Source of the DNA: Bacteroidales bacterium
GTDB lineage: Bacteria > Bacteroidota > Bacteroidia > Bacteroidales > WCHB1-69
Length of the DNA: 64,000 bases
NCBI GenBank assembly: GCA_045116675.1
Contig: JBGUMF010000017.1
Span: 9,322-73,321, forward strand
Direction: 5' to 3'
Shown: positions 3,244-24,661 of the stretch, in pieces
How positions within the stretch are numbered: position 1 is the first letter of the stretch
How the letters are laid out: each line of letters opens with the position of its first letter
Notes under the pieces: generated by a model
Database searches by the model: none
What the model was told of the DNA's origin: nothing
What the model saw: only the letters and a program-made list of their open reading frames with translations
Program-made: the position numbers and the translations under genes

Positions 3244-4518
3244 CTAAGCCAATGACCCATACAGATCATATTCCGCGGCTTCGGTGATTTCCACGTTGTA
3301 GAATTCGCCGATGGTGAGGGGCTTTTCCTTGGTGACGAGCACGCTGTTGTCCACATCCGGGGAGTCGAATTCGGTGCGGCCCACGTAGTGGTCGCGCTCC
3401 TCGCCGTCGATGATGACGCGGAGGGTGCTGCCCACTTTCGACTGGTTGATTTCCAGCGAGATAGTCTCCTGCAGTTGCATGATCTCGCCCACGCGGCGGG
3501 TTTTGATGTTGCGGCGTATGGGGTCGCCCAGCGGGTAGGCGGGGGTGTCCTCCTCCTGCGAGTAGGCGAACACGCCGAGGCGCTCGAACCGGTTGCGGCG
3601 CACAAACTCCACGAGCTCCTTGTGTTGCTCCAGCGTCTCGGTAGGATAGCCGGAGATGAGGGTGGTGCGCAGGGCAATGCCGGGCACCGTCTCGCGGATG
3701 CGGGCGATGAGGTCGTAGATGTACTGCGAGCCGCCGCCGCGCCGCATGTCCTTCAGGATGTCGTCGCTGATGTGCTGGAAGGGGATGTCGAGGTAGCGGC
3801 AGAACTGCGGATAGGCGTTCATCACGTCCAGGATCTCGTAGGGGAAGTTGAGCGGGTAGGCGTAGTGCAGCCGGTACCATTCGATGCCGCGCACCTGGGC
3901 CAGGGCCTCCATCAGGTTGGCCAGCTCGCGTTTGCCGGTGAGGTCGATGCCGTAGTAGGTGAGGTCCTGTGCGATGAGCATCACCTCCTTCACGCCCTGG
4001 TCGGCCAGCTTGCGCACCTCCTCCACCAGCAGGGGGATGGGCTTGGATACCTGTTTGCCGCGGATGAGCGGGATGGCACAATAGGAACATTGGTGGTCGC
4101 AGCCTTCCGACACCTTGAGGTAGGCGTAGTGGGATGGGGTGGAGAGCAGCCGTTCGCTGGTGCCTAACAAGTCGAACTCGTTGGCATCCACCATCTTGTG
4201 CAAATCTGCAAAGGAGTAGAATCCGTCCACCTCGGGCAGCTCGGCCTCCAGCTCCGCCTTGCAGCGCTGGGCCAGACAGCCCACCACGTACAGCTTCTTG
4301 ATGTGGCGGCGCATCTTGCGCTCCACCTGGACGAGGATCTCATTCACCGACTCCTCGCGCGCATCGCCGATGAAGCTGCACGTGTTGAGGATGACGATGT
4401 CGCTCTTCATGGTGCCCTCGAAAAAGACGCGGTGCCCCATCCGTTGCAGCCGGGCAGCCAGCACTTCCGAATCCACGATGTTCTTGGAACATCCTAAGGT
4501 TATGATGTTTACGGTCAT
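3244..4518 (-). CDS. rimO: Ribosomal protein S12 methylthiotransferase RimO (radical SAM, MTTase + TRAM)
   Basis: It has the MTTase N-terminus (NIITLGCSKNIVDSE), the radical-SAM CxxxCxxC motif (CDHQCSYCAIP) and a C-terminal TRAM-like segment. Length is 424 aa. Confidence 0.92.
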   Translation of the reverse strand: MTVNIITLGCSKNIVDSEVLAARLQRMGHRVFFEGTMKSDIVILNTCSFIGDAREESVNEILVQVERKMRRHIKKLYVVGCLAQRCKAELEAELPEVDGFYSFADLHKMVDANEFDLLGTSERLLSTPSHYAYLKVSEGCDHQCSYCAIPLIRGKQVSKPIPLLVEEVRKLADQGVKEVMLIAQDLTYYGIDLTGKRELANLMEALAQVRGIEWYRLHYAYPLNFPYEILDVMNAYPQFCRYLDIPFQHISDDILKDMRRGGGSQYIYDLIARIRETVPGIALRTTLISGYPTETLEQHKELVEFVRRNRFERLGVFAYSQEEDTPAYPLGDPIRRNIKTRRVGEIMQLQETISLEINQSKVGSTLRVIIDGEERDHYVGRTEFDSPDVDNSVLVTKEKPLTIGEFYNVEITEAAEYDLYGSLA

Positions 4519-4542
4519 TTTCTCTATATGATTTTAAAACGG

Positions 4543-4550
4543 CAAACCTA
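4543..4550 (-). promoter_or_regulatory. -7 promoter motif (TAGGTTTG on the minus strand) for rimO
   Basis: The plus strand reads CAAACCTA, 25 nt upstream of the rimO ATG at 4518. Confidence 0.5.
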
Positions 4551-4685
4551 CATTTTTTTTCGGAATTATCAAAATGTCAGATGTAGTTATCCGTTGTGCC
4601 TTTTTTCATGAAAAGAATGGACAAATTTGTTGAATGGTGCGTTTTTTCTGTGGTATTCGGATTTTTAGGATAAAGGAAAAAAATG

Positions 4686-4693
4686 TACATTTG
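4686..4693 (+). promoter_or_regulatory. -7 promoter motif TACATTTG for the upxY-led capsule operon
   Basis: It matches TAnnTTTG, followed by GCAAC, 63 nt upstream of the upxY ATG at 4756. Confidence 0.55.
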
Positions 4694-4755
4694 CAACGGC
4701 TATTCTATGGAGTCTTCCATCCGAATGATGCCATAAGACACGCCGCTGCACAATA

Positions 4756-5448
4756 ATGGAAGAAGTGGTGAAACTGGCTGGCAGACAGCAAGATGAAATA
4801 CCTGTCAGCACAAAAGGCAACGCTCTTGTCTATCCCGAAGTTGAAAAAAACAGCCTCGGGAAGTCGGTGGGGTATGCCCCGCAGCCGGAGGTGCGCTGCT
4901 GGTTCCCCATTCGCGCCACCTATCACCGCGCGCAGAAAGTGTACGACCGGCTGGTGGCACTCGGCAACGACCGTCTTGAGCCGTACCTCCCGACACTCTG
5001 TCGCGTTGAAGAGGACGAGAATACCGGCAATTCGGTGATAAAGGAGGAGCCGTTGGACAAAAGCCTGTTGTTTGTGCGCACCACGTTCTGGGATTTCCGG
5101 ACGTTGTTGGAAAATCCGTCGTTGATTCCGGGATTGACACCTTATTACAACCATTTTAAAACCAATGGGTTCGGTAAAAACGAGTTGTTGACGGTGCCCG
5201 ACCGGCAGATGGAGAGCTTCAAGATCATTGTCGAGTCGCGTAATCAGAACATCATCGTCCGGCAATCTGAGATGCCGAAGATCATCGAGGGCGACCGCGT
5301 GGTCGTTACGGACGGCGCTTTCGCCGGCGTGGAGGGTGTGGTGATGAAATACAAGCACCAGAAGCGCGTGTTTGTGCAGCTGCACGGCGTCGGCATCTAT
5401 GCCACGGCCTACGTGCCGAACACCTTTCTGAAGAAAATTGAAACGTAG
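4756..5448 (+). CDS. upxY: UpxY-family (NusG-like) capsular polysaccharide operon transcription antiterminator
   Basis: It has a NusG NGN-like core (WFPIRATYHRAQKVYDRL) and a C-terminal KOW-like motif (GDRVVVTDGAFAGVEGVV). It is the first gene of a polysaccharide operon. The N-terminal 45 aa or so are an unusual extension, and an internal GTG start is possible. Confidence 0.82.
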   Translation: MEEVVKLAGRQQDEIPVSTKGNALVYPEVEKNSLGKSVGYAPQPEVRCWFPIRATYHRAQKVYDRLVALGNDRLEPYLPTLCRVEEDENTGNSVIKEEPLDKSLLFVRTTFWDFRTLLENPSLIPGLTPYYNHFKTNGFGKNELLTVPDRQMESFKIIVESRNQNIIVRQSEMPKIIEGDRVVVTDGAFAGVEGVVMKYKHQKRVFVQLHGVGIYATAYVPNTFLKKIET

Positions 5449-5512: not shown

Positions 5513-7036
5513 ATGGGCATTATCGCAAGACAAAGCATCAAAGGCACCATCGCCACCTACATCGGGGTGGCTATCGGCTTCGTGACCACCTTTTTCATCC
5601 TCACGTCGTACCTGACGTCGGAGGAGATCGGACTCACGCGCGTGCTGGTGGATGCCGCCACGCTGTTCAGCTCGCTGGCGCTGCTGGGCACCAGCTCGTC
5701 CACCCTGCGTTTCTATCCCCATTTTAAGGATGAGAGCCGCAACCAGCAGGGACTATACTTCTGGACACTGATTATCCCCTTTGTTGGTTTTCTGCTCTTT
5801 TTACTTTGCTTCTTTATTTTTAAAGGATTAATAATCAAAGCATTTGAAGAAAACTCGCCTCTTTTTGTCGATTACGTCCAATACACCTTGCCAATTGCAT
5901 TCTTTATGTTGTATATGTCTGTGTTCGAGGCAAATGCAACGATATTGGAGCGGGTGGCGGTGCCTCGCATGATCCGCGAGGTCTTCATCCGGGCCGGGCT
6001 GTTGGTCGGATACTTGCTGTATGGTTTGTGGCATGTGATCAGCTTGGATGGACTGGTGGTGGTCTTTTGCGTGACGTATGGGATGGGGGCGTTGCTGAAT
6101 TTGTGCTATCTGCTTTTCTCACAGAAGATTTCTTTCAAGCCTGATTTCAAAAAGATTACGCTGGAGTTGCGCCGCGACTTCCTGTTATACACCGCTTTTT
6201 TGGTTACGGCGGCTTTGGTGGGCAGTGTGATGCCCACGCTGAGCAGCTTCTTCATCACGGCCAAGATGGGCTTGATGTTCACGGGTATCTATGCCATTGC
6301 CAACTACATAGCCACGATGGTCGAGATTCCGTCGCGTTCGTTGAATGCCATCGTGCAGCCTCGCATCGCGGTGGCGTTGCGGGCCACGCCCGCCGACTTG
6401 CCCACAGCCACCCGACTGTATCAGCAAGTGTCGTTGAATCAGCTGCTTGTGGGTATGGTCATCCTCATCCTGATTTGGATAAATATTGACTTCTTTTTCG
6501 ACATCCTGCCCAATGGGGAACAGTATGTTGCGGGCAAGTGGGTGGTATTGATTTTGTCCATCTCCAAATTGATTAGTTCTGCTTTTTCCCTTGGGGTCTC
6601 AGCACTCAGCTACACCCGTTGGTATTATACCTCCTTGATTTTCACGCTGATACTGATGATATCCTCCATCTGTCTGAATAACTATCTGATTCCGATTTGC
6701 GGCATTGAGGGTGGTGCATGGGCCACGTTAGGGTCCAACGTTATCTATTACATCCTATTGCTGGCGTTTGTCAAGTGGCGGGTGGGCACCTATCCGTTCA
6801 GCTGGGGGCAGGTAAAAGTGCTGGTTGTGGGCTTGTTGATGGTGGTTTTGAACTATCTGATGGTCCTCATTGCGGGCAAGATTTTCCCGGAGCCCTCGCT
6901 GATGTTCCGCATCGTGGAGGCGGTGGTGCGCACGGGCATCGTGTCGCTGGCCGGCCTGCTGGTCGTCTATTACGGCAACGTCTCCCCGGATGTGAACCGG
7001 CTGATAAGGAAAGTGTTTCGTCAAATCGCCAAATGA
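5513..7036 (+). CDS. wzx: Polysaccharide flippase (Wzx / MOP-superfamily oligosaccharide flippase)
   Basis: The 507-aa protein is polytopic and hydrophobic throughout (about 12-14 predicted helices). It is the second gene of the capsule operon. Confidence 0.8.
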   Translation: MGIIARQSIKGTIATYIGVAIGFVTTFFILTSYLTSEEIGLTRVLVDAATLFSSLALLGTSSSTLRFYPHFKDESRNQQGLYFWTLIIPFVGFLLFLLCFFIFKGLIIKAFEENSPLFVDYVQYTLPIAFFMLYMSVFEANATILERVAVPRMIREVFIRAGLLVGYLLYGLWHVISLDGLVVVFCVTYGMGALLNLCYLLFSQKISFKPDFKKITLELRRDFLLYTAFLVTAALVGSVMPTLSSFFITAKMGLMFTGIYAIANYIATMVEIPSRSLNAIVQPRIAVALRATPADLPTATRLYQQVSLNQLLVGMVILILIWINIDFFFDILPNGEQYVAGKWVVLILSISKLISSAFSLGVSALSYTRWYYTSLIFTLILMISSICLNNYLIPICGIEGGAWATLGSNVIYYILLLAFVKWRVGTYPFSWGQVKVLVVGLLMVVLNYLMVLIAGKIFPEPSLMFRIVEAVVRTGIVSLAGLLVVYYGNVSPDVNRLIRKVFRQIAK

Positions 7037-7084
7037 AAAATCGTCAAATCGCCAAATGAAAAATCGTCAAATCGCCAAATGAAA
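7018..7084. repeat. Perfect 23-bp tandem repeat, 2.9 copies (unit tcgtcaaatcgccaaatgaaaaa)
   Basis: Copies are at 7018-7040, 7041-7063 and 7064-7084 (21 nt). The wzx stop codon (7034-7036) lies in copy 1. The repeat sits exactly at the GC drop that starts the cargo block. Confidence 0.95.
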
Positions 7085-7106
7085 TTTGTAATTGATTAAA
7101 ATTGTG

Positions 7107-7114
7107 TATTTTTG
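7107..7114 (+). promoter_or_regulatory. -7 promoter motif TATTTTTG for the ATPase gene
   Basis: It matches TAnnTTTG, 15 nt upstream of the ATG at 7129. The TTG start listed at 7102 lies upstream of and against this motif. Confidence 0.5.
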
Positions 7115-7128
7115 CAGCCGAAAGTACT

Positions 7129-8418
7129 ATGGGAATAAACAGTGTTTTTTATAAGGCGAGAATTGCGGATGAACTACTGAAAATCAAGTTGAGGTCATCG
7201 TCTGCTGTATTGGTTCAGGGACCCAAGTGGTGTGGCAAAACCACAACAGCTGAACAGGTAGCCAATAGTACCCTTTATATGGCTGACCCAGATACGATTA
7301 AAAAGAATCTTTTATTAGCAGAGTCCAATGTGAAGTCTTTGTTGGAGGGGGATACGCCCCGTCTTATTGACGAATGGCAGGAGGCTCCCCAATTATGGGA
7401 TGCTGTGAGATTTGTGGCTGACCACAACCATGCAATGGGTCAGTTTGTCTTGACGGGAAGTGCTGTTCCCAAAAATCCTGATGCGATGCGTCATAGCGGA
7501 ACTGGACGAATTTCCCGTCTGACTATGCGCCCGATGAGTTTATGGGAATCAGGGGAATCCAAAGGAAACGTGAGTTTGAAGGAGCTCTTTTCTGAGCCTG
7601 AGAGCCTCTTTGCAGAAGCCGAGTTGCAGTTTCCCGACATTGTCTATCTTATTTGTCGGGGAGGGTGGCCGTCTGCCAGTAATATGGACACACCTTATTC
7701 ACTTGAGGCAGCCATCGATTATTTTGAAGCAGTTACAAACGTTGACATTTCGCGAGTGGACGATACTCTGCGCGATGCTTCGAAAGCGAAACGGCTGATG
7801 CGATCGTTGGCTCGACATCAGGGTACGCAAGTGGCCAATACGGTGATAAGAGATGATATGAAAACCAACGATGCTGACACCTTGACGGAAGATACGGTAG
7901 CATCGTATATTTCCGCATTGAAAAAGATATTTGTTATTGAGGATATGGAAGCGTGGAATCCCAATCTCCGTTCCAAGTCGGCCATTCGTACCTCCGATAC
8001 ACGGTATTTTACAGATCCGTCCATAGCCGTGGCCGCTTTGGGAATTGGGCCAGAAGACCTTTTAAATGACTTGAACACAATGGGGCTGTTGTTCGAGACG
8101 TTGGTGGTGCGTGATTTGCGTGTATATGCTGATGCTTTGAATGGTCAGGTGTTTCATTTCAGGGATAGAAATGGGCTGGAGTGTGACACCGTTATTCATT
8201 TGCGCAACGGACATTACGGACTCGTAGAGATCAAGTTGGGGGGGGAGGAGTTGATTGATGCGGGGGCGAATTCTCTTAATAAATTGGAGACGAAAATAGA
8301 TGTGGACCGGATGTATGCGCCATCTTTCAAGATGGTGCTTACTGCTGTGGGTAATATTGCCTACCGCCGTAAGGAGGATGGTGTTTATGTGGTGCCGATA
8401 GGATGTTTGAAACCGTAG
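7129..8418 (+). CDS. AAA-type ATP-binding protein of the DUF4143 / COG1373 class
   Basis: Walker A is VQGPKWCGKTT. The size and C-terminal region (GLECDTVIHL...GLVEIKLGG) are typical of the restriction-endonuclease-like DUF4143 module. Confidence 0.7.
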   Translation: MGINSVFYKARIADELLKIKLRSSSAVLVQGPKWCGKTTTAEQVANSTLYMADPDTIKKNLLLAESNVKSLLEGDTPRLIDEWQEAPQLWDAVRFVADHNHAMGQFVLTGSAVPKNPDAMRHSGTGRISRLTMRPMSLWESGESKGNVSLKELFSEPESLFAEAELQFPDIVYLICRGGWPSASNMDTPYSLEAAIDYFEAVTNVDISRVDDTLRDASKAKRLMRSLARHQGTQVANTVIRDDMKTNDADTLTEDTVASYISALKKIFVIEDMEAWNPNLRSKSAIRTSDTRYFTDPSIAVAALGIGPEDLLNDLNTMGLLFETLVVRDLRVYADALNGQVFHFRDRNGLECDTVIHLRNGHYGLVEIKLGGEELIDAGANSLNKLETKIDVDRMYAPSFKMVLTAVGNIAYRRKEDGVYVVPIGCLKP

Positions 8419-8504
8419 TCCGCATCGGTCCCGACAAGGGCGGATATTGGAAGGTGGGGGGAGTGAGAGGAAAGTATATGGTTACACTTGTGGTGTGAGG
8501 TGCC

Positions 8505-8900
8505 TTGACTGCCGACCACCGTTTCAGATATTTAGCTATATATAACGCTTGCTTTCATGATGGTTTAAATGTGAAACAAGGGACGATGGATGAGTTGGTG
8601 AATGAGGGTGTTTTATTGAGAACAAAGAGTGGTAAACTCTCAATGTCCACAGAGTATAGAAAGTTAGTCGCTGAGATTGCTCATCGTGATGACCGGAATG
8701 GTGAGATAAACGCTCTTAGCGGTAGTCTTAGAGAAGTCTATATGATTGTGAAAAACAATCCGGGAATAAAGATAAAGAAAGTGGCCGAACTGCGGAAGAA
8801 GTCTGAATCTACAGCGGCAAAACAGCTGACTGACCTAAAGAAGAAGCAGTTGGTTGAATACCGTGGCGCTAATAAGACCGGTGGGTACTATGTGATATAA
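8505..8900 (+). CDS. Small winged-helix DNA-binding protein, possibly a 3' gene fragment
   Basis: The C-terminus (IKKVAELRKKSESTAAKQLTDLKKKQLVEYRGANKTGGYYVI) resembles the wHTH tail of Schlafen/AlbA_2-type regulators. The listed start is a TTG with no promoter motif, and there is an internal ATG at 8586. Confidence 0.4.
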   Translation: MTADHRFRYLAIYNACFHDGLNVKQGTMDELVNEGVLLRTKSGKLSMSTEYRKLVAEIAHRDDRNGEINALSGSLREVYMIVKNNPGIKIKKVAELRKKSESTAAKQLTDLKKKQLVEYRGANKTGGYYVI

Positions 8901-9192
8901 CCTGATCGTATGGCCGATATGTATTGATTCCCCTCCCACGGCCGAAGTTATGCGTGACCTCTCGTTGCGCAGTGAATGATAATCGGAAATGTTGATTTTT
9001 AGCAGAAGTAAATAGAGTATTGTATCTTCGTGCTTTCCGAGTCTTGGTTAATGGGGATTGGCGAGGGATGAAAGTGAGGTGAGTCCTCCACCGATTGTCA
9101 TCTTGCTGATATGCTGATGGGGGGGGTAAAAAGGAGATTCCCAAAGTTTAATTGGTCGTTTTACGTAGAATAATAATTCTAATGCTGTTATA

Positions 9193-10197
9193 ATGGATAA
9201 GTTGATAAGAAATAACATTGAAAATCACTCGCACAAAGGGGATGTGTTTGGATTGGGATTGGAGGTGATAAAGTCCCGTGATTACCAGTGGTTAAGGGAT
9301 TATACGTTATCTGGCGACGCTCCTAAAGGTTTTGTTCGTATTTATGACTATGAAGCAGATAGTATGGTGAGACGCCGCTCGCCCAAAACGTGGACTCAGT
9401 ATATTGCTAAAACGGGGCACAAATGGTATCCTATGGAATCGGTCACAGAGTATTTGTTGAATAGGTTGGGAACGGTGTTTGGATTAGAAATGGCAGATTC
9501 GCGATTGTGTATAATCAATGGCCAATTGCGATTTCTTAGCCGCTATTTTTTGCGGAAAAATGAAGAACTTGTTCATGGAGCCGAGATATTTGCGGGCTAT
9601 ATGGAAGATTTGGCTTTCGTGGAGAGTATAGAACAAGCCAATCTTTCAAGAGAGCTCTTCACGTTGCAGTTTGTTGAGAAAGCTGTAGAGAAGGCTTTCC
9701 CGTCAGAAGAACAGTATATCATGCGTGACTTGGTTAGACTGTTGCTTTATGATGCCCTAGTGGGTAACAATGATCGCCATTTTTATAATTGGGCTGTTAT
9801 TCGATCTATCTATTCGAATGCACCTGCAAGGTTTTCACCCATTTACGATACTGCACGTGGATTGTTTTGGAATGTCTCTGATGAGCGTTTGGAAATGCGG
9901 ATGCAACAGAAAGATGTTAGTCGGTATGTAAAGAAATATTGTGATACATCGCGTCCTAAATTAGGTTGGGAAGGCGAAGGAGAGTTGAATCATTTTCGTC
10001 TCGTTAAAAAAATCTTCGAAAGCGAGTTTTATATCATTCATGGTGAGATGAGGGAATTATTTAGTGAAAAGGTTCTGTTTTCTATGAAAGAAACAATAAA
10101 TGAGGAATTTAGTCGTTTGTTATCACCGACAAGAAGATTAATGATAAATGAATGCCTTGAGTACAGGCACAAAAAGATACAGGAGGTAATACAATGA
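9193..10197 (+). CDS. Divergent HipA-like Ser/Thr kinase (HipA_C domain only)
   Basis: The catalytic motif is LVGNNDRHFYNWAV (GNxDxHxxN), with a downstream SPIYDTARG and an upstream ESVTEYLLNRLGTVFGL. There is no canonical GxQxK Gly-rich loop; WTQYIAK occupies that position. Confidence 0.78.
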   Translation: MDKLIRNNIENHSHKGDVFGLGLEVIKSRDYQWLRDYTLSGDAPKGFVRIYDYEADSMVRRRSPKTWTQYIAKTGHKWYPMESVTEYLLNRLGTVFGLEMADSRLCIINGQLRFLSRYFLRKNEELVHGAEIFAGYMEDLAFVESIEQANLSRELFTLQFVEKAVEKAFPSEEQYIMRDLVRLLLYDALVGNNDRHFYNWAVIRSIYSNAPARFSPIYDTARGLFWNVSDERLEMRMQQKDVSRYVKKYCDTSRPKLGWEGEGELNHFRLVKKIFESEFYIIHGEMRELFSEKVLFSMKETINEEFSRLLSPTRRLMINECLEYRHKKIQEVIQ

Positions 10198-10571
10198 ATA
10201 TCATTGAGAAAATAAGGCTTTATTGGCATGATAGCGATGAAACCAATCTTCAAGCTGTAAAAGGTAGTAAAGGTTGTTTCGATTTGATGCTTGGCAAAAT
10301 GTTGGTGGGGAAATTGTTATACGAAAATGGCATGTGGATTTTTATGTATTCTGATGAATACAAGCAGCAAAATCGCTATGAACCGTTAGTTAATTTCCCT
10401 AATCTGAACCAAGAGTACAAATCAGATCAGTTATGGCCATTCTTTGCTTCGCGTTTGCCAGGAGTTTCTGAATTGAAGGAAAACGACAAGTCAGAGTCGG
10501 ATGTTCTTTCATTGCTGCGGAAATACGGACAATGTGTGATTACAAATCCATATAAGTTGGTGTCTTTGTGA
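10194..10571 (+). CDS. HipS-like protein (HipA N-terminal subdomain homolog) encoded downstream of the kinase
   Basis: LVGKLLYENGMWIFMYSDEYKQ...PLVNFPNL...LWPFFASRLPG follows the HipA N-terminal (couple_hipA) pattern. It has an ATGA overlap with the kinase stop and an AGGAGG at 10181-10186, 7 nt upstream of its ATG. Confidence 0.65.
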   Translation: MNIIEKIRLYWHDSDETNLQAVKGSKGCFDLMLGKMLVGKLLYENGMWIFMYSDEYKQQNRYEPLVNFPNLNQEYKSDQLWPFFASRLPGVSELKENDKSESDVLSLLRKYGQCVITNPYKLVSL

Positions 10572-10848
10572 TACTAACAAGTTACGTTAGCAGCTTTCCG
10601 CGCTTTCCGTGTGAGAAAAACAATCTGTAAGCGGTGAGCAAGGTTAGAGCCAAGTGAAAGGAAAAAACAGCAGTGAAGGCCAACTCCAAGATGGAACTTT
10701 TTTGGGGGCACTGAGGCGTTATGAAATTGTATGTTTAGGGGACGCTTGAAAATTGATATCGAATAACTAGGAAAAAGCGAACGAAGATTTTGTAATTTCT
10801 GTGTGACAATCTCTATATTTCTTTTGAATTACTAATTATTGAAAGAAA

Positions 10849-11628
10849 ATGAACATAAAGAACAAATACATAATCTGGACTGTTTTCATCATCTTCGGTT
10901 TAGGATTATTTCTTATTGCTGAATGGATGCCAAGTGATTTCTGGCAAGGGGTGGTTAGAAGCATCGCAGGAGCACTTCTTATCAGTGGAACATTCTCTGT
11001 GGTTCATGATGTTGTTGAAAGGAAAGAAGAGGAGAGTTTTTTTGCAAATATGTTTGCAATCTCATCAGCTGTTAAAGAAAGTGGTTTGCTGGATATAAGG
11101 ACGGATTCAAAGGAATATTCCTTTAGATCAGTGCTAAAGAAATCCAAAAAGTTCGCCGCAATAATGAATGACGGTCGTACTTGGGTCAATCAATATTATA
11201 CCGACCTGATTGAAAGATTGAATACATCAGGCACAGAAACGGAGTTTTTTCTCGTGGATCCAGAAGGCTTCTTTATACCTGCGTTAGCCCAAAAGACAGA
11301 TTATAAAGAAGATAAACTAAAGGAGAAAATCGTGGAGTGTGTTGAACTGTTGAAGAAACTTTATGAAGAAAGTGATAAGAAAGGTTCTTTGGCAATTACA
11401 TATCTAAAGAACTATCCCACACAATCTTTGTATTATGCAGATGATGAGGTTATTGTAACACCCTATCAAGTTGCGTGTGGCAGAAATAAGGTTCCAGTAT
11501 ATGTATATAGTTACAAGGGCGGACATGAAACAATAGGTAATTTTTTGGTTAAAGACTTAAGAAATGTACGAGCAGAAAGTCGAATGGTTTGGAATAATGG
11601 ACAAGAATTAAGATTGGAGGAAGAATGA
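10849..11628 (+). CDS. Two-transmembrane protein with a cytoplasmic domain of about 200 aa and unknown function (DUF5919-like by recalled motif pattern)
   Basis: There are two hydrophobic helices (about residues 7-26 and 34-54). The soluble domain has FAAIMNDGRTW...FFLVDPEG...SLYYADDEVIVTPY, which resembles the LYNSxYRFDDExLVNxH-type motif of DUF5919. Confidence 0.6.
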   Translation: MNIKNKYIIWTVFIIFGLGLFLIAEWMPSDFWQGVVRSIAGALLISGTFSVVHDVVERKEEESFFANMFAISSAVKESGLLDIRTDSKEYSFRSVLKKSKKFAAIMNDGRTWVNQYYTDLIERLNTSGTETEFFLVDPEGFFIPALAQKTDYKEDKLKEKIVECVELLKKLYEESDKKGSLAITYLKNYPTQSLYYADDEVIVTPYQVACGRNKVPVYVYSYKGGHETIGNFLVKDLRNVRAESRMVWNNGQELRLEEE

Positions 11629-11987
11629 AAGCAAAAGTTCAGTATAATGATTTTATAGGGACTGCGGCAGCAGATATATCTGATTATTATCTTAACTCAT
11701 TAAACGAATATCTTGAAAAAAGGTATTCCAATTATGATTCGGAAAGGTACTATTGTGTGGGGTGTGAATTCTATACTTCTTATGGGCAGTATCCCTCCGT
11801 ACGTTTTGTTTGTCGCGATATAGAGAATAATTCTTACCATCAGTTCCGACCAGAACAAGAATTTTCTTTAGTAGATTTCTTTGAACTCTTTAAACGTTTT
11901 TCCATAGTGATAGGACAGGGTATTGACAACATAGAGATTGATGAAAACGAGAATATAATCTTAAAGAGTGCCGAAACAGAAGAATAA
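11625..11987 (+). CDS. Small acidic hypothetical protein (120 aa), candidate antitoxin or immunity partner
   Basis: It has an ATGA overlap with the upstream gene and a GGAGG 4 nt upstream of its ATG. Hand count gives 22 acidic versus 11 basic residues. I recognise no family. Confidence 0.55.
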   Translation: MKAKVQYNDFIGTAAADISDYYLNSLNEYLEKRYSNYDSERYYCVGCEFYTSYGQYPSVRFVCRDIENNSYHQFRPEQEFSLVDFFELFKRFSIVIGQGIDNIEIDENENIILKSAETEE

Positions 11988-11993
11988 AAGTTT

Positions 11994-12933
11994 ATGTTAG
12001 TAGTTTTTGATACAAACAGCTATAGAGATATGGTATCAGGTGTCGATGCCGTTGACGTTGTGCCTCGGATGAAGAAGCTGCTGGCACTTGAGTCAGCAAA
12101 GGGCGTTACGGCATTGATGAGTACCATTGTGGCGGAAGAAATCCTTGGTTATCTTCTTGATGACGAAAGTACGCGGACGTATAAGGCATGTATTAAGGCC
12201 ACGAAGGCATTATATATGCACTGCGGTGATGAACATCAGCTTCGTCTTGTACCATCACCGCAGACACAATTGGCTAAAGAGTTTTTTTGGAGTAGAAAGC
12301 AAAAGGTTTTTTGACACGCAGCAGGCTGTTGCTCTCACAGCGTTTGAGATATCCAAGGATTTGACCAAGGACAACATCAACCGACATAAGGAAACACTAA
12401 AAAAGATAAAGATGCATTTGCAAGAATCAGAGAAAGAACTTGCTGATGGCGTATTAGAAATGGGACGCAAAATAGATCCTTCTTATACCGACTGGAAACT
12501 GTTTGTGGGGAATCAAAGTATGCGTACCAAATATTTGAATTTTATTAAACCTGAATCATTTAGGATTGGGATTTCTGCGATATTTTTGTCAGCGGTAGGA
12601 ATTAATCTTGAAGAGGAAGGTTTAATAACCACACCAACTCAGGAAGAATTCCACAAAATGATACAGGACTATATGCAACGTTATGAAGCCCCCATCAATA
12701 TGCAGGCATTGTTTTATGAGTTAGTGTTGCAGCCAGATTTTGATGTTACTAAGAATTCTCATGCCAATTTTTTATGGGATACTCAGATACTTCATGTCGC
12801 TGGTCATTCTATTTCAGGTGACGATATAATCCTTGTTACCTCTGATAAGGCAATGATTATGCAAGCAAATAAAGTAATAGCAGGGAAGGTGTTCACGTTA
12901 AATGAATATAAGACATTCGTGGGGCTGCAGTAG
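11994..12933 (+). pseudogene. Long PIN-like nuclease (about 313 aa if repaired) interrupted by a +1 frameshift in a T7 run
   Basis: The N-terminal ORF (11994-12314) begins MLVVFDTNSY and contains VAEEILG. The C-terminal ORF (frame +1, to 12933) carries FLWDTQILHVA and IILVTSD. Together these give the four PIN acidic positions. Removing one T from 12282-12288 fuses the frames as ...QLAKEFFGVESKRFFDTQQ... Confidence 0.7.
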
Positions 12934-13332
12934 TTAACCGCTGAAATTGAAAAAAGAGGGTACAATTACTTCATTTTCCTCTCCTCTATCCCACTTTCCC
13001 ACGTACTTTTTGCCACCTCCTACCTTTCCCCTCTCCGTCCCCAATAAACACCAACAATATGAATGCAACCAAATTCCCCGCCGAAATAGGCTGCAACCAT
13101 ATACACATGCCCAACAATTCTGTAAATTACCATCGCATAAAAAAAACTACTGCTGCATTCCCGCATGACTATTCCATGCGGATGGAGCTTCATATTCCAA
13201 TGGTGGAGTTGAATGCGTTAGGCGTTTATGGTTTTTACAATTAATTGAGATTGTGGATATTTGAGAGTGCCAATGATATGGTCAATTTTTAGTATAGATG
13301 TTTTTGTGATTTAACCATAATAAAAATAATAA

Positions 13333-14139
13333 ATGGCAATTATACCAAGTTTTTATCTGAATTCTGTTGTGGCTATCGGAGTGCGTGCGGATAGTGGAGC
13401 TGTTTCATGGGTTGGAACAGGTTTCTTTGTGGGTCGGTCTGCACAAGATAATCCTCAAAAAGTGCGTCCATTTCTTGTAACGAATAAGCATGTGTTTTTT
13501 AATCGAAATACAGTTGTTATAAGAATGAAAATAGAAGGGACTGAGGAACTGCAAATGATTGATGTTCCTCTAAAAGATGCTGGGGGCAACCTCTTATATC
13601 AACTTCATGAAGATGCAAACATTGATATAGCTGTGTTACAAATTAATGCAAAATTCATAGAGAACAGTCATTTAGAGTTCCAGTGTTTCAATATATATGA
13701 TAATGCCATGACTTCAACAGAACTTAGGAACCAGGGCGTTGACGAAGGCTCTATCATATATATGTTAGGATTTCCTATGGGTTTGGTAAATGAAAAATCG
13801 AATGTGCCTCTTTGCCGGATGGGATGTATATCTCGGATGAGCGAGATACAAATACGAGAGCAACATAACATGTTGGTGGATATTCAAAACTTCCCTGGAA
13901 ATTCTGGAAGTCCAATCATTTCGCGTCCTGAAATTATCTCAATCAAAGGGACTCCCAGTCTTTCTAAATGCGTTTTAATAGGCATTGTACATTCCTATAT
14001 TCCATATCATGAAAAACTAATTAATAGTCAAACCAATCAGGTTGTTGAAATAAAAAGTGAGAATAGTGGAATCGCAAATGCTCATCCAGTGGAGTATATT
14101 CGTGATATTATAGATAGAATTCACGTAGAAACAATGTGA
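13333..14139 (+). CDS. Cytoplasmic trypsin-like (S1/Trypsin_2) serine protease
   Basis: The catalytic triad contexts are TNKHV (His), DIAVLQI (Asp) and GNSGSPI (Ser). There is no signal peptide. Confidence 0.8.
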   Translation: MAIIPSFYLNSVVAIGVRADSGAVSWVGTGFFVGRSAQDNPQKVRPFLVTNKHVFFNRNTVVIRMKIEGTEELQMIDVPLKDAGGNLLYQLHEDANIDIAVLQINAKFIENSHLEFQCFNIYDNAMTSTELRNQGVDEGSIIYMLGFPMGLVNEKSNVPLCRMGCISRMSEIQIREQHNMLVDIQNFPGNSGSPIISRPEIISIKGTPSLSKCVLIGIVHSYIPYHEKLINSQTNQVVEIKSENSGIANAHPVEYIRDIIDRIHVETM

Positions 14140-14352
14140 TTATATATGATTCTATTTATTGTCTTGTTCCTTCACTATATTTGCAGCAAGCTCTAATACC
14201 ACTGCTTTGTTTGCTAGAAAGTATCTTCCTTTTGCAATTCTATATCACCTCTCGTTCCCGATAAACAACAATCTGAGCACCGCCAAAGAAATATTGATGA
14301 CAGAGTGAAACATTTTGTAAGGAGATTTCGTGCTATTTTCGTTTTTTCTCAC

Positions 14353-14360
14353 TACTTTTG
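14353..14360 (+). promoter_or_regulatory. -7 promoter motif TACTTTTG upstream of tagD
   Basis: It matches TAnnTTTG, followed by CAACC, 60 nt upstream of the ATG at 14420. Confidence 0.5.
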
Positions 14361-14419
14361 CAACCTCAATATTTACGCGATGCTTTTAGAATATTTAGAT
14401 TCAAAATAGATTTTATAGT

Positions 14420-14896
14420 ATGATAATCGGTTATACCACTGGTGTTTACGACTTGTTTCATGTCGGGCACCTCAATTTGCTGAAAAATGCAAAAGGCATG
14501 TGCGACTATCTGGTTGTCGGCGTTACCGTTGACGAACTGGTCGCGTATAAGGGCAAACATGCCATGATCCCGTTCGAGGACAGAATCGAAATCGTGAGAA
14601 GTTGCAAGTATGTTGATGCGGCTGTCCCGCAGTACGACATGGACAAACTCACCGCCTGCAAGAAACTCGGTGCAAAAGTCCTTTTTGTGGGCGATGACTG
14701 GTATGGCACCGACAAATGGAAGGAGTACGAAAAGAAATTCAATGAGGAAGGTATCAGAATTGTTTACTTCCCATACACCAAAGGCATTTCATCTACAAAG
14801 ATAACACAGGCACTGCAGCAGGTTCGCGGCTGGACAGACGAATCGGCGCAAAAAGCACTTCATTTAAACATAGGAGACCAAGAAAATGACAGATAA
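14420..14896 (+). CDS. tagD: Glycerol-3-phosphate cytidylyltransferase (makes CDP-glycerol)
   Basis: It has the HxGH motif (FHVGH), GDDW and TKGISSTKI motifs, collinear with Bacillus TagD. Confidence 0.82.
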   Translation: MIIGYTTGVYDLFHVGHLNLLKNAKGMCDYLVVGVTVDELVAYKGKHAMIPFEDRIEIVRSCKYVDAAVPQYDMDKLTACKKLGAKVLFVGDDWYGTDKWKEYEKKFNEEGIRIVYFPYTKGISSTKITQALQQVRGWTDESAQKALHLNIGDQENDR

Positions 14897-15929
14897 AGAG
14901 TATTGCATGAGTTCGTATCTGGCGTTGAGATACGTGGAAGATGACGCGAAACAGTTTTTTCCAGGACTCAAGCATCAAGTTTATAAGCAGCATCCTCTTT
15001 CCGCAAAAACATTAGTCGATGATGCTCAGGATGTTGAAATTGCGTTGCGCAATGTCTTCAGATTGATCAGCAACGAGCGTTTGGGTATGTTGTTGTCAGG
15101 AGGTATGGATAGTTCCATATTGGCCTCCTATATGCCGGAAGGCTCGGATGCTTACACTTTCCGTTTTTTAGGTGGAAAGTTTGAAAATGGAGAGTTGGAA
15201 CGGGCTGAATATTATGCCAAATACTATCATTTGAATCTTCATTATGTGGATATTGACTGGCAAACGGTAGAGAATTCTGTTGACCTTCTGATGGATCGAA
15301 AAGGTGCGCCAGTACATTCCATAGAGCCTCAGATTTATACTGCGGCGTTGCAGGCTAAATCGGATGGGGTGACCATGTTGGTTATCGGTGATGCAGCCGA
15401 CTATGTGTTTGGTGGGATGGACGGTCTGCTATCGAAAAACTGGGGATTCAGAGAATATATTGACAGGTCCATTTATATCAATCCAGAAGATGTCTTATGT
15501 AATCCTGTTTCCATGGATTATTTGTTTGAGAGATACCGTTTAGGTAAAAACAGCATTGACTATCTTCGCTTTTATGATGAAATTGTGACGGATGAGAGTT
15601 ACGCATCCTACGAAAATGCCATCTCAACAGCTGATATGGATTTCATTGACCCGTATGAGAAATTGAAATTGGCGAAGCCGTTGGATTTAGGTAGAATAAG
15701 GAATGGTGAGTCGAAATACATCATCCGAGAATTGTTCCGGATGAAGTACCCGGATATCACGATTCCGTTGAAGCAGCCCATGCCCCGTCCGGTAGATGAG
15801 TATTTTAAGAATTGGGAGGGCCCAAAGCGTCCTGAATTCAGAAAAGATATTGATATTAAAAAGTATAGCGGAAACCAAAAATGGCTGTTGTATTGCCTGG
15901 AACGTTTCCTGAATAGATTTGACAAATAA
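14886..15929 (+). CDS. Asparagine-synthase-like PP-loop adenylating enzyme lacking the glutaminase domain (paralog 1)
   Basis: The PP-loop is LLSGGMDSS. There is no N-terminal Cys/Ntn domain. Length is 347 aa. Confidence 0.75.
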   Translation: MTDKEYCMSSYLALRYVEDDAKQFFPGLKHQVYKQHPLSAKTLVDDAQDVEIALRNVFRLISNERLGMLLSGGMDSSILASYMPEGSDAYTFRFLGGKFENGELERAEYYAKYYHLNLHYVDIDWQTVENSVDLLMDRKGAPVHSIEPQIYTAALQAKSDGVTMLVIGDAADYVFGGMDGLLSKNWGFREYIDRSIYINPEDVLCNPVSMDYLFERYRLGKNSIDYLRFYDEIVTDESYASYENAISTADMDFIDPYEKLKLAKPLDLGRIRNGESKYIIRELFRMKYPDITIPLKQPMPRPVDEYFKNWEGPKRPEFRKDIDIKKYSGNQKWLLYCLERFLNRFDK

Positions 15930-15940
15930 ATGATTGTGTT

Positions 15941-16984
15941 ATGGTAAACAAGGACTTTTGCTTGAGTTCCTATATGGCATTTCGTTATATATGGAAAGAT
16001 GGCGTTGATTTTGTTGAAGGGTTTCAACACAAAAACTTTCAGCCTATTGCGGATAAAGACCGTATTCCCGTAAGGACATCAGAGGACATTGAGCGAGAGA
16101 TACAAAAACAGTTTGATGAGTTGTATGCCAAATACAGCAACATCGGCATTCTGTTGTCTGGTGGGATGGATAGCGCAAACTTGGCAGCCTATCTTAAACC
16201 TGGGAGTCATGCTTACACATTCAACTCCACATCCGGCGTCTTTGATGCTGATGTGGAACGTGCCAAAATATATTGTAAGAAATTCGATTTGAAGCATCAT
16301 CTGATTGATATAACCATGGAGGATTACAAAAAATATGCTCCTGTGGTGATGCATCATAAATTTGCCCCGGTCCATTCTATCGAGCCCCAGATTTACAAAG
16401 CTGCAGAGTTGGCTAAGAATGATGGTGTTCAATTGATGATTGTTGGCGAAAGCGCAGACCTGATTTTTGGAGGCATGGACAAACTTATCAGCCCTATATG
16501 GACTTTTGATGCGTTTGCGAAACGTTATACGTTCTTGGATCCTAAATTGGTTTTGGTCAATCCGATTGAACAGGTTGAACTGTTTGAGAAATATCGTGAG
16601 GGTGAAAATGGGATTGATGTGCTGAGGTTTATGGATGAAGTCTTTTCTATAGAGAGCAGCAGCTCTTATTTGAATGCTTTCGGTGCAGCTTGGATGCCTT
16701 ATTATGATCCGTATGCGAAACTGATTATGGCTGATCCCCTGGATATGGACAGGGTGCGCAACGGAGAGCCCAAATACCTTGTCCGTGGATTATATGCCAT
16801 CAAATATCCCGAATTGGAAATACCTTTCAAGATTCCTATGCCGCGCCCTGTGGACACCGTGTTCAAAAATTGGGCAGGCCCTACTCGTCCGGAGTTCAGA
16901 AAGGACATTGACATGGCTTCGCTCACAGGCAATCAAAAGTGGCAGTTGTGGTGTGCGGAGACCTTCCTGAATATGATACAATAA
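15941..16984 (+). CDS. Asparagine-synthase-like PP-loop adenylating enzyme lacking the glutaminase domain (paralog 2)
   Basis: The PP-loop is LLSGGMDSA. It is the same length (347 aa) and collinear with paralog 1, sharing motifs APVHSIEPQIY, FGGMD, RNGE.KY and PMPRPVD..FKNW.GP.RPEFRKDID. Confidence 0.75.
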   Translation: MVNKDFCLSSYMAFRYIWKDGVDFVEGFQHKNFQPIADKDRIPVRTSEDIEREIQKQFDELYAKYSNIGILLSGGMDSANLAAYLKPGSHAYTFNSTSGVFDADVERAKIYCKKFDLKHHLIDITMEDYKKYAPVVMHHKFAPVHSIEPQIYKAAELAKNDGVQLMIVGESADLIFGGMDKLISPIWTFDAFAKRYTFLDPKLVLVNPIEQVELFEKYREGENGIDVLRFMDEVFSIESSSSYLNAFGAAWMPYYDPYAKLIMADPLDMDRVRNGEPKYLVRGLYAIKYPELEIPFKIPMPRPVDTVFKNWAGPTRPEFRKDIDMASLTGNQKWQLWCAETFLNMIQ

Positions 16985-16988
16985 TTAT

Positions 16989-17810
16989 ATGAAAATGAAA
17001 GAACTCAGTACCGAGGAGTTGAAGCAGATAATGCTTGACGAGTTGATAGTGGTTGATGAATTCTGTCGTAAAAACGGAATAGAATATTTTCTTGAAGGAG
17101 GTACTGGTATAGGCGCAGTTAGACACAAGGGCTATATTCCTTGGGATGATGATATTGATATCGCCATGACGCGGCCGAACTATGAACGTTTTATTCACAC
17201 TTTTGGTGGATATTGTGCCCACTTAAATCTATATGCTCCTGAACTTGATGAAAATTTCTATGCAGCTTATGCCAATGTGTGTGATAACCGTACGGTTTTG
17301 TTTGAGAACCAATTTGACTACCGAGGCTATGATATTGGGGTGAAGATAGATGTTTTTCCTATTGATGGTTGCGAAGACGATATACGCGTGTGTAAAAGAT
17401 GGCACATTTTAGTTCGTATGTTGGATAATATTCTCTCCCGCCGTCACCGAAATATGCGTTATACATGGCGTACCAATAAATGGAATTATCTTACGTGCAC
17501 CATAGTTCGGTTGCTCACTTCGCCTATCAAATATCGAACATTTATGCGCTGGCTGTTACGCATTGTTAAGCGTTGTGATTATGAAAAGGCCAATTATGCC
17601 TATCATGCCTCTTTGCCGTACAAGAGCGTGACCCGTTGCCCAAAGTATGTGTGGGAAAATTATGTTGATGTTGAGTTTGAAGGACATTTGGTGCGAAATC
17701 TTCGCGAATATGACATTCACTTAAGTACTATTTTTGGTGACTATATGCGACTGCCACCAGAAGAACAACGCACCCCACACCATAACTTTATTGCTTATTG
17801 GAAAGACTGA
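16989..17810 (+). CDS. licD: LicD-family phosphotransferase
   Basis: FLEGGTGIGAVRHKGYIPWDDDIDIAM is the LicD nucleotidyltransferase-fold signature. Confidence 0.8.
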   Translation: MKMKELSTEELKQIMLDELIVVDEFCRKNGIEYFLEGGTGIGAVRHKGYIPWDDDIDIAMTRPNYERFIHTFGGYCAHLNLYAPELDENFYAAYANVCDNRTVLFENQFDYRGYDIGVKIDVFPIDGCEDDIRVCKRWHILVRMLDNILSRRHRNMRYTWRTNKWNYLTCTIVRLLTSPIKYRTFMRWLLRIVKRCDYEKANYAYHASLPYKSVTRCPKYVWENYVDVEFEGHLVRNLREYDIHLSTIFGDYMRLPPEEQRTPHHNFIAYWKD

Positions 17811-17812
17811 TT

Positions 17813-18973
17813 ATGAAAAAAATACTGCTTGTTTTTGGCACACGGCCAGAGGCCATTAAAATGTGCCCGTTGGTAAAAGAATTTCAGAAATATCCAGCTG
17901 AAATAGAAACAGTTGTATGCGTTACCGGTCAACATCGGGAAATGTTGGATCAGGTGCTGCATATTTTTGAAGTTGTGCCAGATTTTGATCTTAATATTAT
18001 GAAGCAAGGTCAAGATCTATATGATGTCACCTCTCGCGTTCTGACAGGAATGAGAGACATTTTACAAAAAGTCAAACCCGATGTCGTTTTGGTTCATGGT
18101 GATACCACAACTTCCATGGCAGCAGCTCTGGCATCGTTCTATCAGCAAATTCCGGTCGGACATGTGGAAGCTGGTCTTCGGACACACAATTTATATAGCC
18201 CTTGGCCCGAAGAATTGAATAGACAAGTCACAGGAAGAATTGCCAAGTTTAACTTTTCCCCGACGAAACTTAGCCATGATAACTTAATTGCTGAAAATGT
18301 TCCAGAGAATCATATTTACATTACAGGAAATACGGTCATTGATGCTTTGCATGTTGTTGTAAATAAGATTAAAAGCAGTTCTCAAGTTTCATCTGAATTA
18401 GCTCAAGTACTACTCAAATCGGGATACGACACCGAGAGATTATCCAATGGTAAAAAATTAGTTCTTATCACTGGACATCGTAGAGAGAACTTCGGCGAAG
18501 GCTTCATCAATATGTGTACTGCCATCAAGGATTTAACGAAAAAGTATCCGGAAGTCGATTTTGTTTATCCCATGCATCTGAATCCGAACGTGCGAAAGCC
18601 TATTCATGAGGTTTTTGGTAACGATCTGGGTCATCTTGACAATATGTTTTTCATCGAACCATTGGAATATTTGAGCTTTGTGTTCTTGATGGACAAGTCA
18701 TATCTTGTTTTAACGGACAGTGGTGGCATCCAGGAAGAGGCACCGGGATTAGGAAAACCCGTACTTGTTATGCGTGACACTACAGAACGCCCAGAAGCCG
18801 TTGAAGCTGGGACGGTGAAATTAGTGGGAACTGATTATTCTTTAATCGTAAGTGAAACAACACGATTACTTGATGATTCCAAATATTACAATAGTATGTC
18901 ACAGGCCGTTAATCCTTATGGGGATGGTCATGCTTGTGAAAGAATAGTGAATATTTTAAAACAAACGCTATGA
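17813..18973 (+). CDS. wecB: UDP-N-acetylglucosamine 2-epimerase (non-hydrolysing)
   Basis: Motifs include KILLVFGTRPEAIKMCPL, VLVHGDTTT and LTDSGGIQEEAPGLGKPVLVMRDTTERPE. The listed TTG at 17798 overlaps licD, so I use the ATG at 17813. Confidence 0.92.
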   Translation: MKKILLVFGTRPEAIKMCPLVKEFQKYPAEIETVVCVTGQHREMLDQVLHIFEVVPDFDLNIMKQGQDLYDVTSRVLTGMRDILQKVKPDVVLVHGDTTTSMAAALASFYQQIPVGHVEAGLRTHNLYSPWPEELNRQVTGRIAKFNFSPTKLSHDNLIAENVPENHIYITGNTVIDALHVVVNKIKSSSQVSSELAQVLLKSGYDTERLSNGKKLVLITGHRRENFGEGFINMCTAIKDLTKKYPEVDFVYPMHLNPNVRKPIHEVFGNDLGHLDNMFFIEPLEYLSFVFLMDKSYLVLTDSGGIQEEAPGLGKPVLVMRDTTERPEAVEAGTVKLVGTDYSLIVSETTRLLDDSKYYNSMSQAVNPYGDGHACERIVNILKQTL

Positions 18974-19692: not shown

Positions 19693-19694
19693 GG

Positions 19695-24119: not shown

Positions 24120-24441
24120 TTTCTTCTGGAATTTCAACAACACTTAAAGCACCGATGCAGTCCTTGCAGCAGAGCAACAGCAGCGACATCCTGTCCAGTC
24201 TGCTGATGTCGGTGTTGCGCAAGGCCACATCCAGCAACCAGCCTTCTGGAATCAATCCGTCAAATGCCGGAAACAGGGTCGGACTCCCGTATGCGAGATT
24301 GGATAAGGGCATGGTCAAACTGACTGGTTGAGGATTGTCAGATGACAAATATTCTGGCAGATACTCGAAGCGGTACCCCGTGTCAGTCTCGGTTAAAACA
24401 CCGGCCAATTGGTTTTTATAGAAAAAGTTAGCTCTGCGCAT
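24112..24441 (-). CDS. hipS: HipS-type protein (HipA N-terminal subdomain)
   Basis: LAGVLTETDTGYRFEYL...PVSLTMPL...LFPAFDGLIPEGW is the HipA N-terminal pattern. It overlaps hipT by 8 nt and hipB by 14 nt. Confidence 0.8.
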   Translation of the reverse strand: MRRANFFYKNQLAGVLTETDTGYRFEYLPEYLSSDNPQPVSLTMPLSNLAYGSPTLFPAFDGLIPEGWLLDVALRNTDISRLDRMSLLLLCCKDCIGALSVVEIPEENE

Positions 24442-24640: not shown

Positions 24641-24661
24641 AAAACTATATGATTTCGTCTG

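Follow-up and report, generated by a model that had tools for sequence, protein, structure and literature searches.

A kinase gene followed by a HipS-like gene forms a two-gene Hip module with hipJS-type organisation in a Bacteroidales genome

Hip kinases are studied as a model of persistence and, more and more, of phage defence. To our knowledge, mechanistic work on them covers only the proteobacterial systems HipBA and HipBST. Here, a HipA-superfamily kinase gene and the HipS-like gene directly behind it are described from a Bacteroidales bacterium of the lineage WCHB1-69 (assembly GCA_045116675.1). The analysed stretch comprises 64,000 nucleotides of contig JBGUMF010000017.1 (positions 9,322 to 73,321 of the forward strand). 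It is referred to as the window, and all coordinates of the locus are given within it. The pair had been singled out from the sequence as a split Hip system with a permuted gene order and a kinase without the canonical loop (the original prediction).

Hip kinases were classed by gene organisation by Gerdes, Baerentsen & Brodersen, mBio 2021 (PMC8262856). Within their main clade XI, hipIN combines a short kinase with a downstream HipS-HIRAN protein, hipL is a fusion of kinase, HipS and HIRAN, and hipJS consists of a short kinase with a downstream stand-alone HipS, which was proposed to be the antitoxin (PMC8262856). It was further proposed that hipJS derives from hipIN by loss of HIRAN. Only 2 of the 1,239 modules in that survey were hipJS, and clade XI was without experimental study at that time (PMC8262856). 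In HipBST, Trp65 of Escherichia coli HipS is inserted beside the Gly-rich loop of HipT and is essential for antitoxin activity, and Glu63 points into the active site; the loop serines of HipT are Ser57 and Ser59 (PMC10627512). Conservation of Trp65 is limited to some of the HipS proteins, even in HipBST (PMC10627512).

By organisational criteria alone, the locus in the window is of the hipJS type, being a self-contained two-gene module without a conserved DNA-binding partner (Table 1). The original prediction was confirmed in part. Both open reading frames (ORFs) and their ATGA overlap were borne out by the ORF coordinates and the sequence, and the system is indeed split, with a core kinase that lacks N-subdomain 1, a HipS-like gene downstream and no HipB. 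It had also been stated that no XRE gene is adjacent, and in fact no helix-turn-helix (HTH) gene belongs to the pair. The order of kinase and then HipS without HipB, which had been taken for a permutation, is real, but it is neither new, as it is the hipJS arrangement of Gerdes et al. 2021, nor rare, as scanning a single genome of each GTDB species yielded 283 loci. Counts of synteny, overlap and neighbours given in the following cover the best 80 of these 283 loci. The pair was kept in 80/80 of them, and the observation is thus real and far beyond chance. The reservation made beforehand, that this might be a common and characterised Hip subclass, applies as far as common and described are concerned. 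Experimental characterisation of HipJ, hipJS or the PADLOC candidate system PDC-M03 was not found in the literature searched, where the name HipS led mostly to papers on human induced pluripotent stem cells (hiPSC).

As judged from its sequence, the 334-aa protein is a HipA-superfamily core kinase without the HipA N-subdomain 1, and its catalytic, Mg-binding and Gly-rich-loop motifs are intact. It matched Pfam HipA_C (PF07804) over residues 39-241 with an E-value of 6.8e-14 and 52.5 bits (cut-off 30.5). Matches to HipA and YjjJ in NCBIfam (YjjJ) and among PDB sequences were marginal. Both predicted signature motifs, GNNDRHFYN (residues 191-199) and YDT (residues 218-220), are present. GNNDRH..N was found in 197/197 kinase relatives and YDT or FDT in 191/197.

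The AlphaFold2 (AF2) model of the kinase reached a predicted local distance difference test score (pLDDT) of 85.5 and a predicted template modelling score (pTM) of 0.87. When searched against the PDB with Foldseek, it gave 36 matches at E<=1e-3, all of which were CtkA, HipT or HipA. CtkA (3akk, E 3e-9) ranked first, followed by Legionella HipT, HipA of Shewanella and E. coli, and E. coli HipT. The template modelling (TM) score with CtkA was 0.67 by query length and 0.74-0.78 by target length. Two alignments were used for profile searches: A1 with 23 relatives and the window's own HipT-like protein, and A2, a family alignment of 24 sequences without the HipT-like protein. As A1 contained that protein, its PDB E-values to HipT were inflated, and the search was therefore redone with A2 and with the single sequence. 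With A2, CtkA was the top PDB match (1e-6, residues 162-320). The profile of the kinase family aligned with the window's HipT-like protein in hhalign with 88.5% probability and an E-value of 2.7e-6.

Concerning the Gly-rich loop, the original prediction did not hold. It had stated that the loop is missing and that WTQYIAK sits in its place, which was an alignment error, since the loop is formed by residues T38 to K45 and WTQYIAK follows it. MAFFT aligned T38-L-S-G-D-A-P-K45 with T-L-T-G-V-Q-P-K of the window's HipT-like protein, and hhalign with the A2 family profile gave the same register. Against Legionella HipT, the HMMER profile of A1 placed the loop segment on M-S-V-Q-G-V-Q-K-K, in agreement with the other methods. 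In a phmmer search with the single sequence, W67-TQYIAKTGHKWYP was aligned with residues 79-92 of HipT from Legionella pneumophila, HipT(Lp), YGQYILKPQSDIYP, which lie C-terminal of the loop. WTQYIAK also aligned with HWGGFILK of the window's HipT-like protein in both MAFFT and hhalign. The AF2 model is consistent with this assignment: residues 35-44 join the strands 31-34 and 45-50, and Y-I-A-K73 ends the strand 68-73. A hairpin followed by a lysine strand, as modelled here, is the usual layout of a Gly-rich loop, and from the kinase architecture K73 of YIAK would be the ATP-binding lysine.

Residues G41-D-A-P-K45, W67, I71 and K73 were invariant in the 24-sequence family alignment. In the larger set, GDAPK was present in 175/197 kinase relatives and a Ser or Thr at loop position -3 in 152/194. 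Given that GDAPK is invariant across taxa with only 43-78% identity, the loop can be considered functional and under purifying selection. Judging by these alignments, the protein is a kinase with a loop variant, in which Ala stands in place of the Gln in GxQxK and an Asp is fixed, and not a loop-less kinase. T38 and S40 align with Ser57 and Ser59 of HipT and may be autophosphorylation sites; the position of T38 (loop -3) is also that of HipA Ser150.

The second protein had been predicted to follow the HipS pattern, and Pfam, hhalign and Foldseek all supported this. Its sole domain is Couple_hipA (PF13657), matched above the cut-off of 22.5 with 27.7 bits and an E-value of 3.9e-6; TIGR03071 of NCBIfam remained below its cut-off (22.6 bits, cut-off 27.8). 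With hhalign, the HipS-like family profile matched the window's own HipS with 87.9% probability and an E-value of 3.3e-6. Structural similarity to the HipA N-subdomain had been named as a check on the prediction, and a HipS fold was indeed matched, with a moderately confident model. The mean pLDDT of the AF2 model was 67, with 82-91 in the core residue blocks 31-80 and less than 50 in residues 89-101. The sole credible PDB match in Foldseek was E. coli HipS (7ab3_B) with a probability of 1.00, an E-value of 1.5e-2 and TM scores of 0.50/0.61.

The invariant LWPFFASRLPG motif of the HipS-like protein aligns with the L-x-P-x-F-x-x-x-x-P-E-G-W region of HipS. In this alignment, the positions of Glu63 and Trp65 are occupied by Gly90 and Ser92, respectively. 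A conserved Trp at the column equivalent to Trp65 was not found in the HipS-like family alignment (A3), where this column is variable. The family has features of its own, namely a conserved N-terminal extension of ~30 aa with W-H-D-S-D-E-T-N and a C-terminal V-I-T-N-P-Y motif (A3).

Relatives of the kinase are numerous. In a collection of 5.8 billion proteins, 2078 were obtained at cluster level (E<=1e-3), the best 120 of which had 49-100% identity and a length of 275-364 aa. An exhaustive HMMER search with the HipS-like profile yielded 471 representatives at the level of 50% identity, of which 261 reached E<=1e-10. The best 150 of these were nearly all stand-alone proteins of 100-150 aa, and no HIRAN domain was found in the longer relatives among the HipS-like proteins. 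The cassette is common in Bacteroidota and also present in Verrucomicrobiota, and the pair is strongly conserved. Most of the 80 loci belonged to the Bacteroidota (Bacteroidales, Cytophagales, Chitinophagales, Flavobacteriales, Sphingobacteriales and Saprospirales), in addition to nine from Verrucomicrobiota, one from Ignavibacteria and one from Balneolales. A few short contigs of metagenome-assembled genomes (MAGs) were labelled Firmicutes and may be mis-binned. No match to the kinase was found at 1e-10 in the plasmid and phage collections, and only two IMG/VR contigs carried it.

The HipS-like homologue was located directly downstream and on the same strand in 79/80 loci, and intact copies gave phmmer values from 1e-16 to 1e-67. 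In the 80th locus, L077 from a Lewinellaceae MAG, it followed the kinase gene at a distance of 1.75 kb. The insertion in L077 (4952-6700) contained no ORF of at least 120 aa, no runs of N and no Rfam match. In L071, L072, L037 and L038 (~4000-5300), the kinase was split or truncated, and the HipS-like gene was also fragmented in L071; these disrupted loci suggest that the module occasionally decays.

The -4 ATGA overlap was shared by 37/80 loci, and most of the others had the two genes within ~25 nt. In the window, the overlap suggests translational coupling of the kinase and the HipS-like gene, and the AGGAGG inside the end of the kinase gene may be an internal ribosome-binding site. This AGGAGG had been noted before as a strong and atypical site. 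It is present, but it is not a trait of the family, as a similar GGAGG-like site precedes the second gene, inside the last kinase codons, in only ~10/80 loci. AGGAGG occurred 58 times in the window, compared with 24.6 ± 5.3 expected from dinucleotide-preserving shuffles. The excess could reflect codon or amino-acid usage and not ribosome-binding sites.

Both proteins matched profiles of the defence candidate PDC-M03 in PADLOC. The kinase aligned with PDC-M03A at 3.4e-31 over profile positions 44-276 of 280; its first ~70-80 residues, with the GDAPK loop among them, are not covered by the match to the PDC-M03A profiles. For the HipS-like protein, the match to PDC-M03B (1.6e-11) was confined to the N-terminal part, covering positions 24-93 of 232 in the best profile. 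Across all hits, matches to PDC-M03B (profiles of 232-255 positions) reached at most position 113 of 250. The partial match indicates that the 125-aa protein does not have the C-terminal domain of that profile. This missing domain would correspond to the HIRAN of a hipIN-type HipN, and the PDC-M03 match would thus be compatible with a hipIN-like candidate system of which the module is a relative without HIRAN.

Around the module, between 7 and 20 kb, the guanine-cytosine (GC) content is ~0.35-0.45, compared with 0.5-0.6 in the flanks. This low-GC stretch sits in a polysaccharide-biosynthesis region and looks like a variable, horizontally acquired region. Several unannotatable ORFs occur within it (7000-20000). 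The three ORFs behind the module (10849-12933) were without a family match in Pfam and PADLOC; an identical Logan contig (L081) carries them, and they are absent from the 80 related Hip loci. Scans for sigma-70 promoters and terminators gave no more hits than shuffled sequence, with a consensus unsuited to Bacteroidota. Rfam and repeat scans of the intergenic flanks gave nothing of note, and no operator-like repeat was found in them.

Table 1. Features of the kinase/HipS-like module and its surroundings, with positions in the window
Feature	Position	Strand	Description
HipA-superfamily Ser/Thr kinase gene	9193-10197	+	334-aa ORF, ATG start; presumed toxin
HipS-like gene	10194-10571	+	125-aa ORF, ATG start; presumed antitoxin or regulator
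ATGA overlap of kinase stop and HipS-like start	10194-10197	+	4 nt, from the sequence
AGGAGG	10181-10186	+	7 nt 5' of the HipS-like ATG, within kinase codons Q-E-V
Gly-rich loop variant T38-L-S-G-D-A-P-K45	9304-9327	+	aligned to the HipT loop by MAFFT, HMMER and hhalign
Post-loop motif W67-T-Q-Y-I-A-K73	9391-9411	+	aligns with YGQYILK of HipT(Lp), residues 79-85
Catalytic motif G191-N-N-D194-R-H-F-Y-N199	9763-9789	+	aligns with GNEDMHLKN of HipT(Lp)
Mg-binding motif Y218-D219-T220	9844-9852	+	aligns with the YDL motif of HipT
Invariant motif L80-W-P-F-F-A-S-R-L-P-G90 of the HipS-like protein	10431-10463	+	invariant columns of alignment A3
Wzx-like flippase	5513-7036		polysaccharide biosynthesis
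AAA_14/DUF4143 ATPase	7102-8418	+	438 aa; PADLOC single-gene defence candidate PDC-S01, E 3.9e-61; immediately upstream of the wHTH-like ORF
Winged helix-turn-helix (wHTH)-like ORF	8505-8900	+	131 aa; weak C-terminal winged-helix similarity, sub-threshold
ORF directly downstream of the module	10849-11628	+	259 aa, hydrophobic N-terminus
ORF overlapping the preceding 259-aa ORF by 4 nt	11625-11987	+	120 aa
Third downstream ORF	12127-12933	+	268 aa
Trypsin_2-like peptidase ORF	13333-14139	+	268 aa, in the low-GC stretch
Cytidylyltransferase	14420-14896		polysaccharide biosynthesis
Two Asn-synthase-like genes	14886-16984		polysaccharide biosynthesis
hipB-hipS-hipT locus	23172-24664	-	HTH_3 3.2e-9 (77 aa), Couple_hipA 4.6e-24 (108 aa), HipA_C 1.5e-47 (322 aa)

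An upstream wHTH ORF had been named as the nearest candidate for a DNA-binding protein. Such an ORF exists, with matches to Csa3/CasR-type HTH and to the C-terminus of SoFic (E ~1e-4 to 1e-5 in PADLOC and NCBIfam, below the curated cut-offs), but a homologue occurred in 0/80 related loci, and it was therefore ruled out as a component of the module. In L081, this ORF is called from an internal ATG and comprises 104 aa. Of the window's neighbours, only the PDC-S01-like ATPase recurred next to the module elsewhere, in 1/80 loci (L002). ATPases similar to the one in the window were seen to adjoin the module in L002 and L024. When the flanking ORFs of the 80 loci were clustered, no conserved partner was found among them. 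The commonest flanking genes encoded subunits of type I restriction-modification (R-M) systems in 7, 4 and 4 loci, confirmed as Methylase_S (HsdS-like), N6_Mtase and helicase-type. In L073, L066, L047 and others, several of which are from Verrucomicrobiota MAGs, the module is seemingly embedded in R-M operons. The second Hip locus of the window, on the minus strand, proved to be a canonical hipB-hipS-hipT operon as predicted. Its HipT-like protein carries the loop T-L-T-G-V-Q-P-K and its HipS the motif P-E-G-W. The genome thus has two different split Hip systems ~13 kb apart.

The pair is probably a toxin-antitoxin or abortive-infection kinase module in which the kinase is restrained by its HipS-like partner. 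By analogy to HipBST, the HipS-like protein would bind to the N-lobe of the kinase beside the Gly-rich loop and keep the kinase off. Once this inhibition is lost, the kinase would phosphorylate an essential component of translation and cause growth arrest; aminoacyl-tRNA synthetases are the known Hip targets. Autophosphorylation at T38 or S40 could modulate the inhibition. The role would be phage defence of the abortive-infection type rather than plasmid addiction. Defence is supported by the matches to PDC-M03A/B, the PDC-S01 gene upstream, the R-M flanks, the low GC content and the absence from the plasmid collection. Given the defence-type neighbourhood and the PADLOC matches, abortive-infection defence appears to be the most plausible role.

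Several points weigh against this restrained-kinase reading. For toxicity, the antitoxin role and the target, the reading draws on analogy alone, and the N-subdomain of full-length HipA is not inhibitory. According to the model, CtkA is the closer structural relative of the kinase, and CtkA is not known as the toxin of a toxin-antitoxin system. The evidence for a defence island is circumstantial, with recognisable defence neighbours at only a minority of the related loci. In addition, the inhibitory residues Glu63 and Trp65 of HipS are not conserved, and the corresponding region of the model is of low confidence (residues 89-101). Consequently, an inhibitory contact must differ in detail from the one of E. 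coli HipS.

The same residues bear on the main alternative, which is rather unlikely: instead of restraining the kinase, the HipS-like protein would be an indispensable subunit with a structural or activating role and would restore the two-part fold of HipA in trans. It would then be needed for stability, substrate recognition or activity of the kinase, and regulation would lie elsewhere, for instance in autophosphorylation or a phage trigger. The absence of Glu63 and Trp65 (G90 and S92) with a variable column at the Trp65 equivalent fits such a subunit, and so do the partner motifs WHDSDETN and VITNPY, which are not in HipS. A covalently attached subdomain is compatible with activity in the established HipA structures. 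An obligate heterodimer would account for the strict 1:1 co-occurrence and the ATGA coupling no less well than a toxin-antitoxin pair. However, the stand-alone HipS of L. pneumophila reportedly acts as an antitoxin. The HipS of E. coli O127 does so, too (PMC10627512), and no other stand-alone HipS is known to have been studied experimentally. The same role was proposed for the HipS of hipJS by Gerdes et al. (PMC8262856). The absence of Trp65 is not decisive, because this residue is conserved in only some HipS within HipBST (PMC10627512).

The nearness to CtkA could also mean that the kinase is an effector acting outside the producing cell, e.g. on a host, with the small protein as chaperone or accessory. 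Both in fold and in the profile search, CtkA is the nearest match to the kinase, and it is reported to be a secreted proinflammatory kinase, as the title of its PDB entry also indicates. Still, this is very improbable. The family occurs in free-living and environmental Bacteroidota and in MAGs of Verrucomicrobiota, Ignavibacteria and Balneolales as well as in gut taxa, and no obvious hydrophobic N-terminus resembling a signal peptide was seen by eye in the aligned sequences. Moreover, a HipS-homologous partner is typical of intracellular Hip systems, and the PADLOC profiles matched are those of defence candidates. Hardly any probability at all is left for a decayed pseudokinase whose loop is degenerate and which no longer has a function. 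Its loop deviates from GxQxK (Gln to Ala), and the four disrupted relatives mentioned above show visible damage, but every catalytic position is invariant and the GDAPK loop is kept across distant taxa. Both ORFs are intact in the window, and no locus of the 80 had lost the pair.

As an annotation, the finding is ordinary, namely a known kind of system that is recognisable with Pfam and PADLOC. Its relevance lies in the fact that the kinase-then-HipS arrangement, of which the 2021 survey had two examples, turns out to form a large family with tight conservation that includes gut Bacteroidales. The family is marked by a distinctive but intact loop and by a partner that is unable to use the known Trp65 plug. 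For these reasons, it is a reasonable candidate for a first study of a two-component Hip system without HipB in Bacteroidota. A wider interpretation is offered tentatively and with some doubt: the module may represent a large, so far unrecognised CtkA-like Hip family in Bacteroidota and Verrucomicrobiota with an invariant GDAPK loop and a Trp-less partner with N- and C-terminal motifs of its own. If so, its control mechanism would be different from the one of HipBST, the family may serve as abortive-infection phage defence in gut and environmental Bacteroidota, and its target would possibly be other than the known aminoacyl-tRNA synthetases.

Of the systems described so far, hipJS is the closest in organisation. 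The module shares with it a core kinase without N-subdomain 1, in which the loop is near the N-terminus (residues 38-45, with the HipA_C match starting from residue 39), and a stand-alone HipS-like gene immediately downstream in the same operon. It also shares the absence of an HTH (HipB/HipR), HIRAN or resolvase partner, and a Ser/Thr beside the Gly-rich loop. Both are known only bioinformatically. They differ in extent, with two modules in the survey compared with 283 species-level loci and >2000 protein clusters in the present family, and in the length of the kinase, which has 334 aa here while 279-321 aa are quoted for the short kinases of clade XI (PMC8262856). The motifs GDAPK and KTGHKWYP were absent from the rows of Table S1 that precede clade XI (PMC8262856).

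With HipBST of E. coli O127:H6 and L. pneumophila, the module has in common that the core kinase and the homologue of N-subdomain 1, which form one fold in HipA, are two separate proteins. The loop pattern (S/T)-aliphatic-(S/T)-G as well as the catalytic and Mg-binding motifs are shared, and HipT(Lp) and E. coli HipS are among the best matches of the two proteins to solved structures. In contrast to HipBST, the kinase gene comes first and there is no HipB, so that the order hipB-hipS-hipT with its HTH gene is not found. The loop reads G-D-A-P-K where HipBST has G-V-Q-x-K, the partner has neither Glu63 nor Trp65 and carries an additional conserved segment at its N-terminus, and the identity of the kinase to the window's HipT-like protein is only ~20%.

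CtkA of Helicobacter pylori (JHP0940; PDB 3akj/3akk/3akl) resembles the kinase in its length (325 aa), in the absence of N-subdomain 1 and in having the nearest fold, while the sequence identity is ~15%. CtkA is said to be a secreted, proinflammatory kinase directed at the host. Finally, the kinase belongs to the same superfamily as HipA of E. coli K-12. The two have the catalytic Asp/Asn and the Mg-binding Asp in common, and both carry a Ser/Thr at position -3 of the loop. The HipS-like protein has its homologue in N-subdomain 1 of HipA (Couple_hipA). In HipA, however, this subdomain and the kinase form a single chain, and an HTH protein from an upstream gene, HipB, serves as the antitoxin; neither is the case in the module described here.

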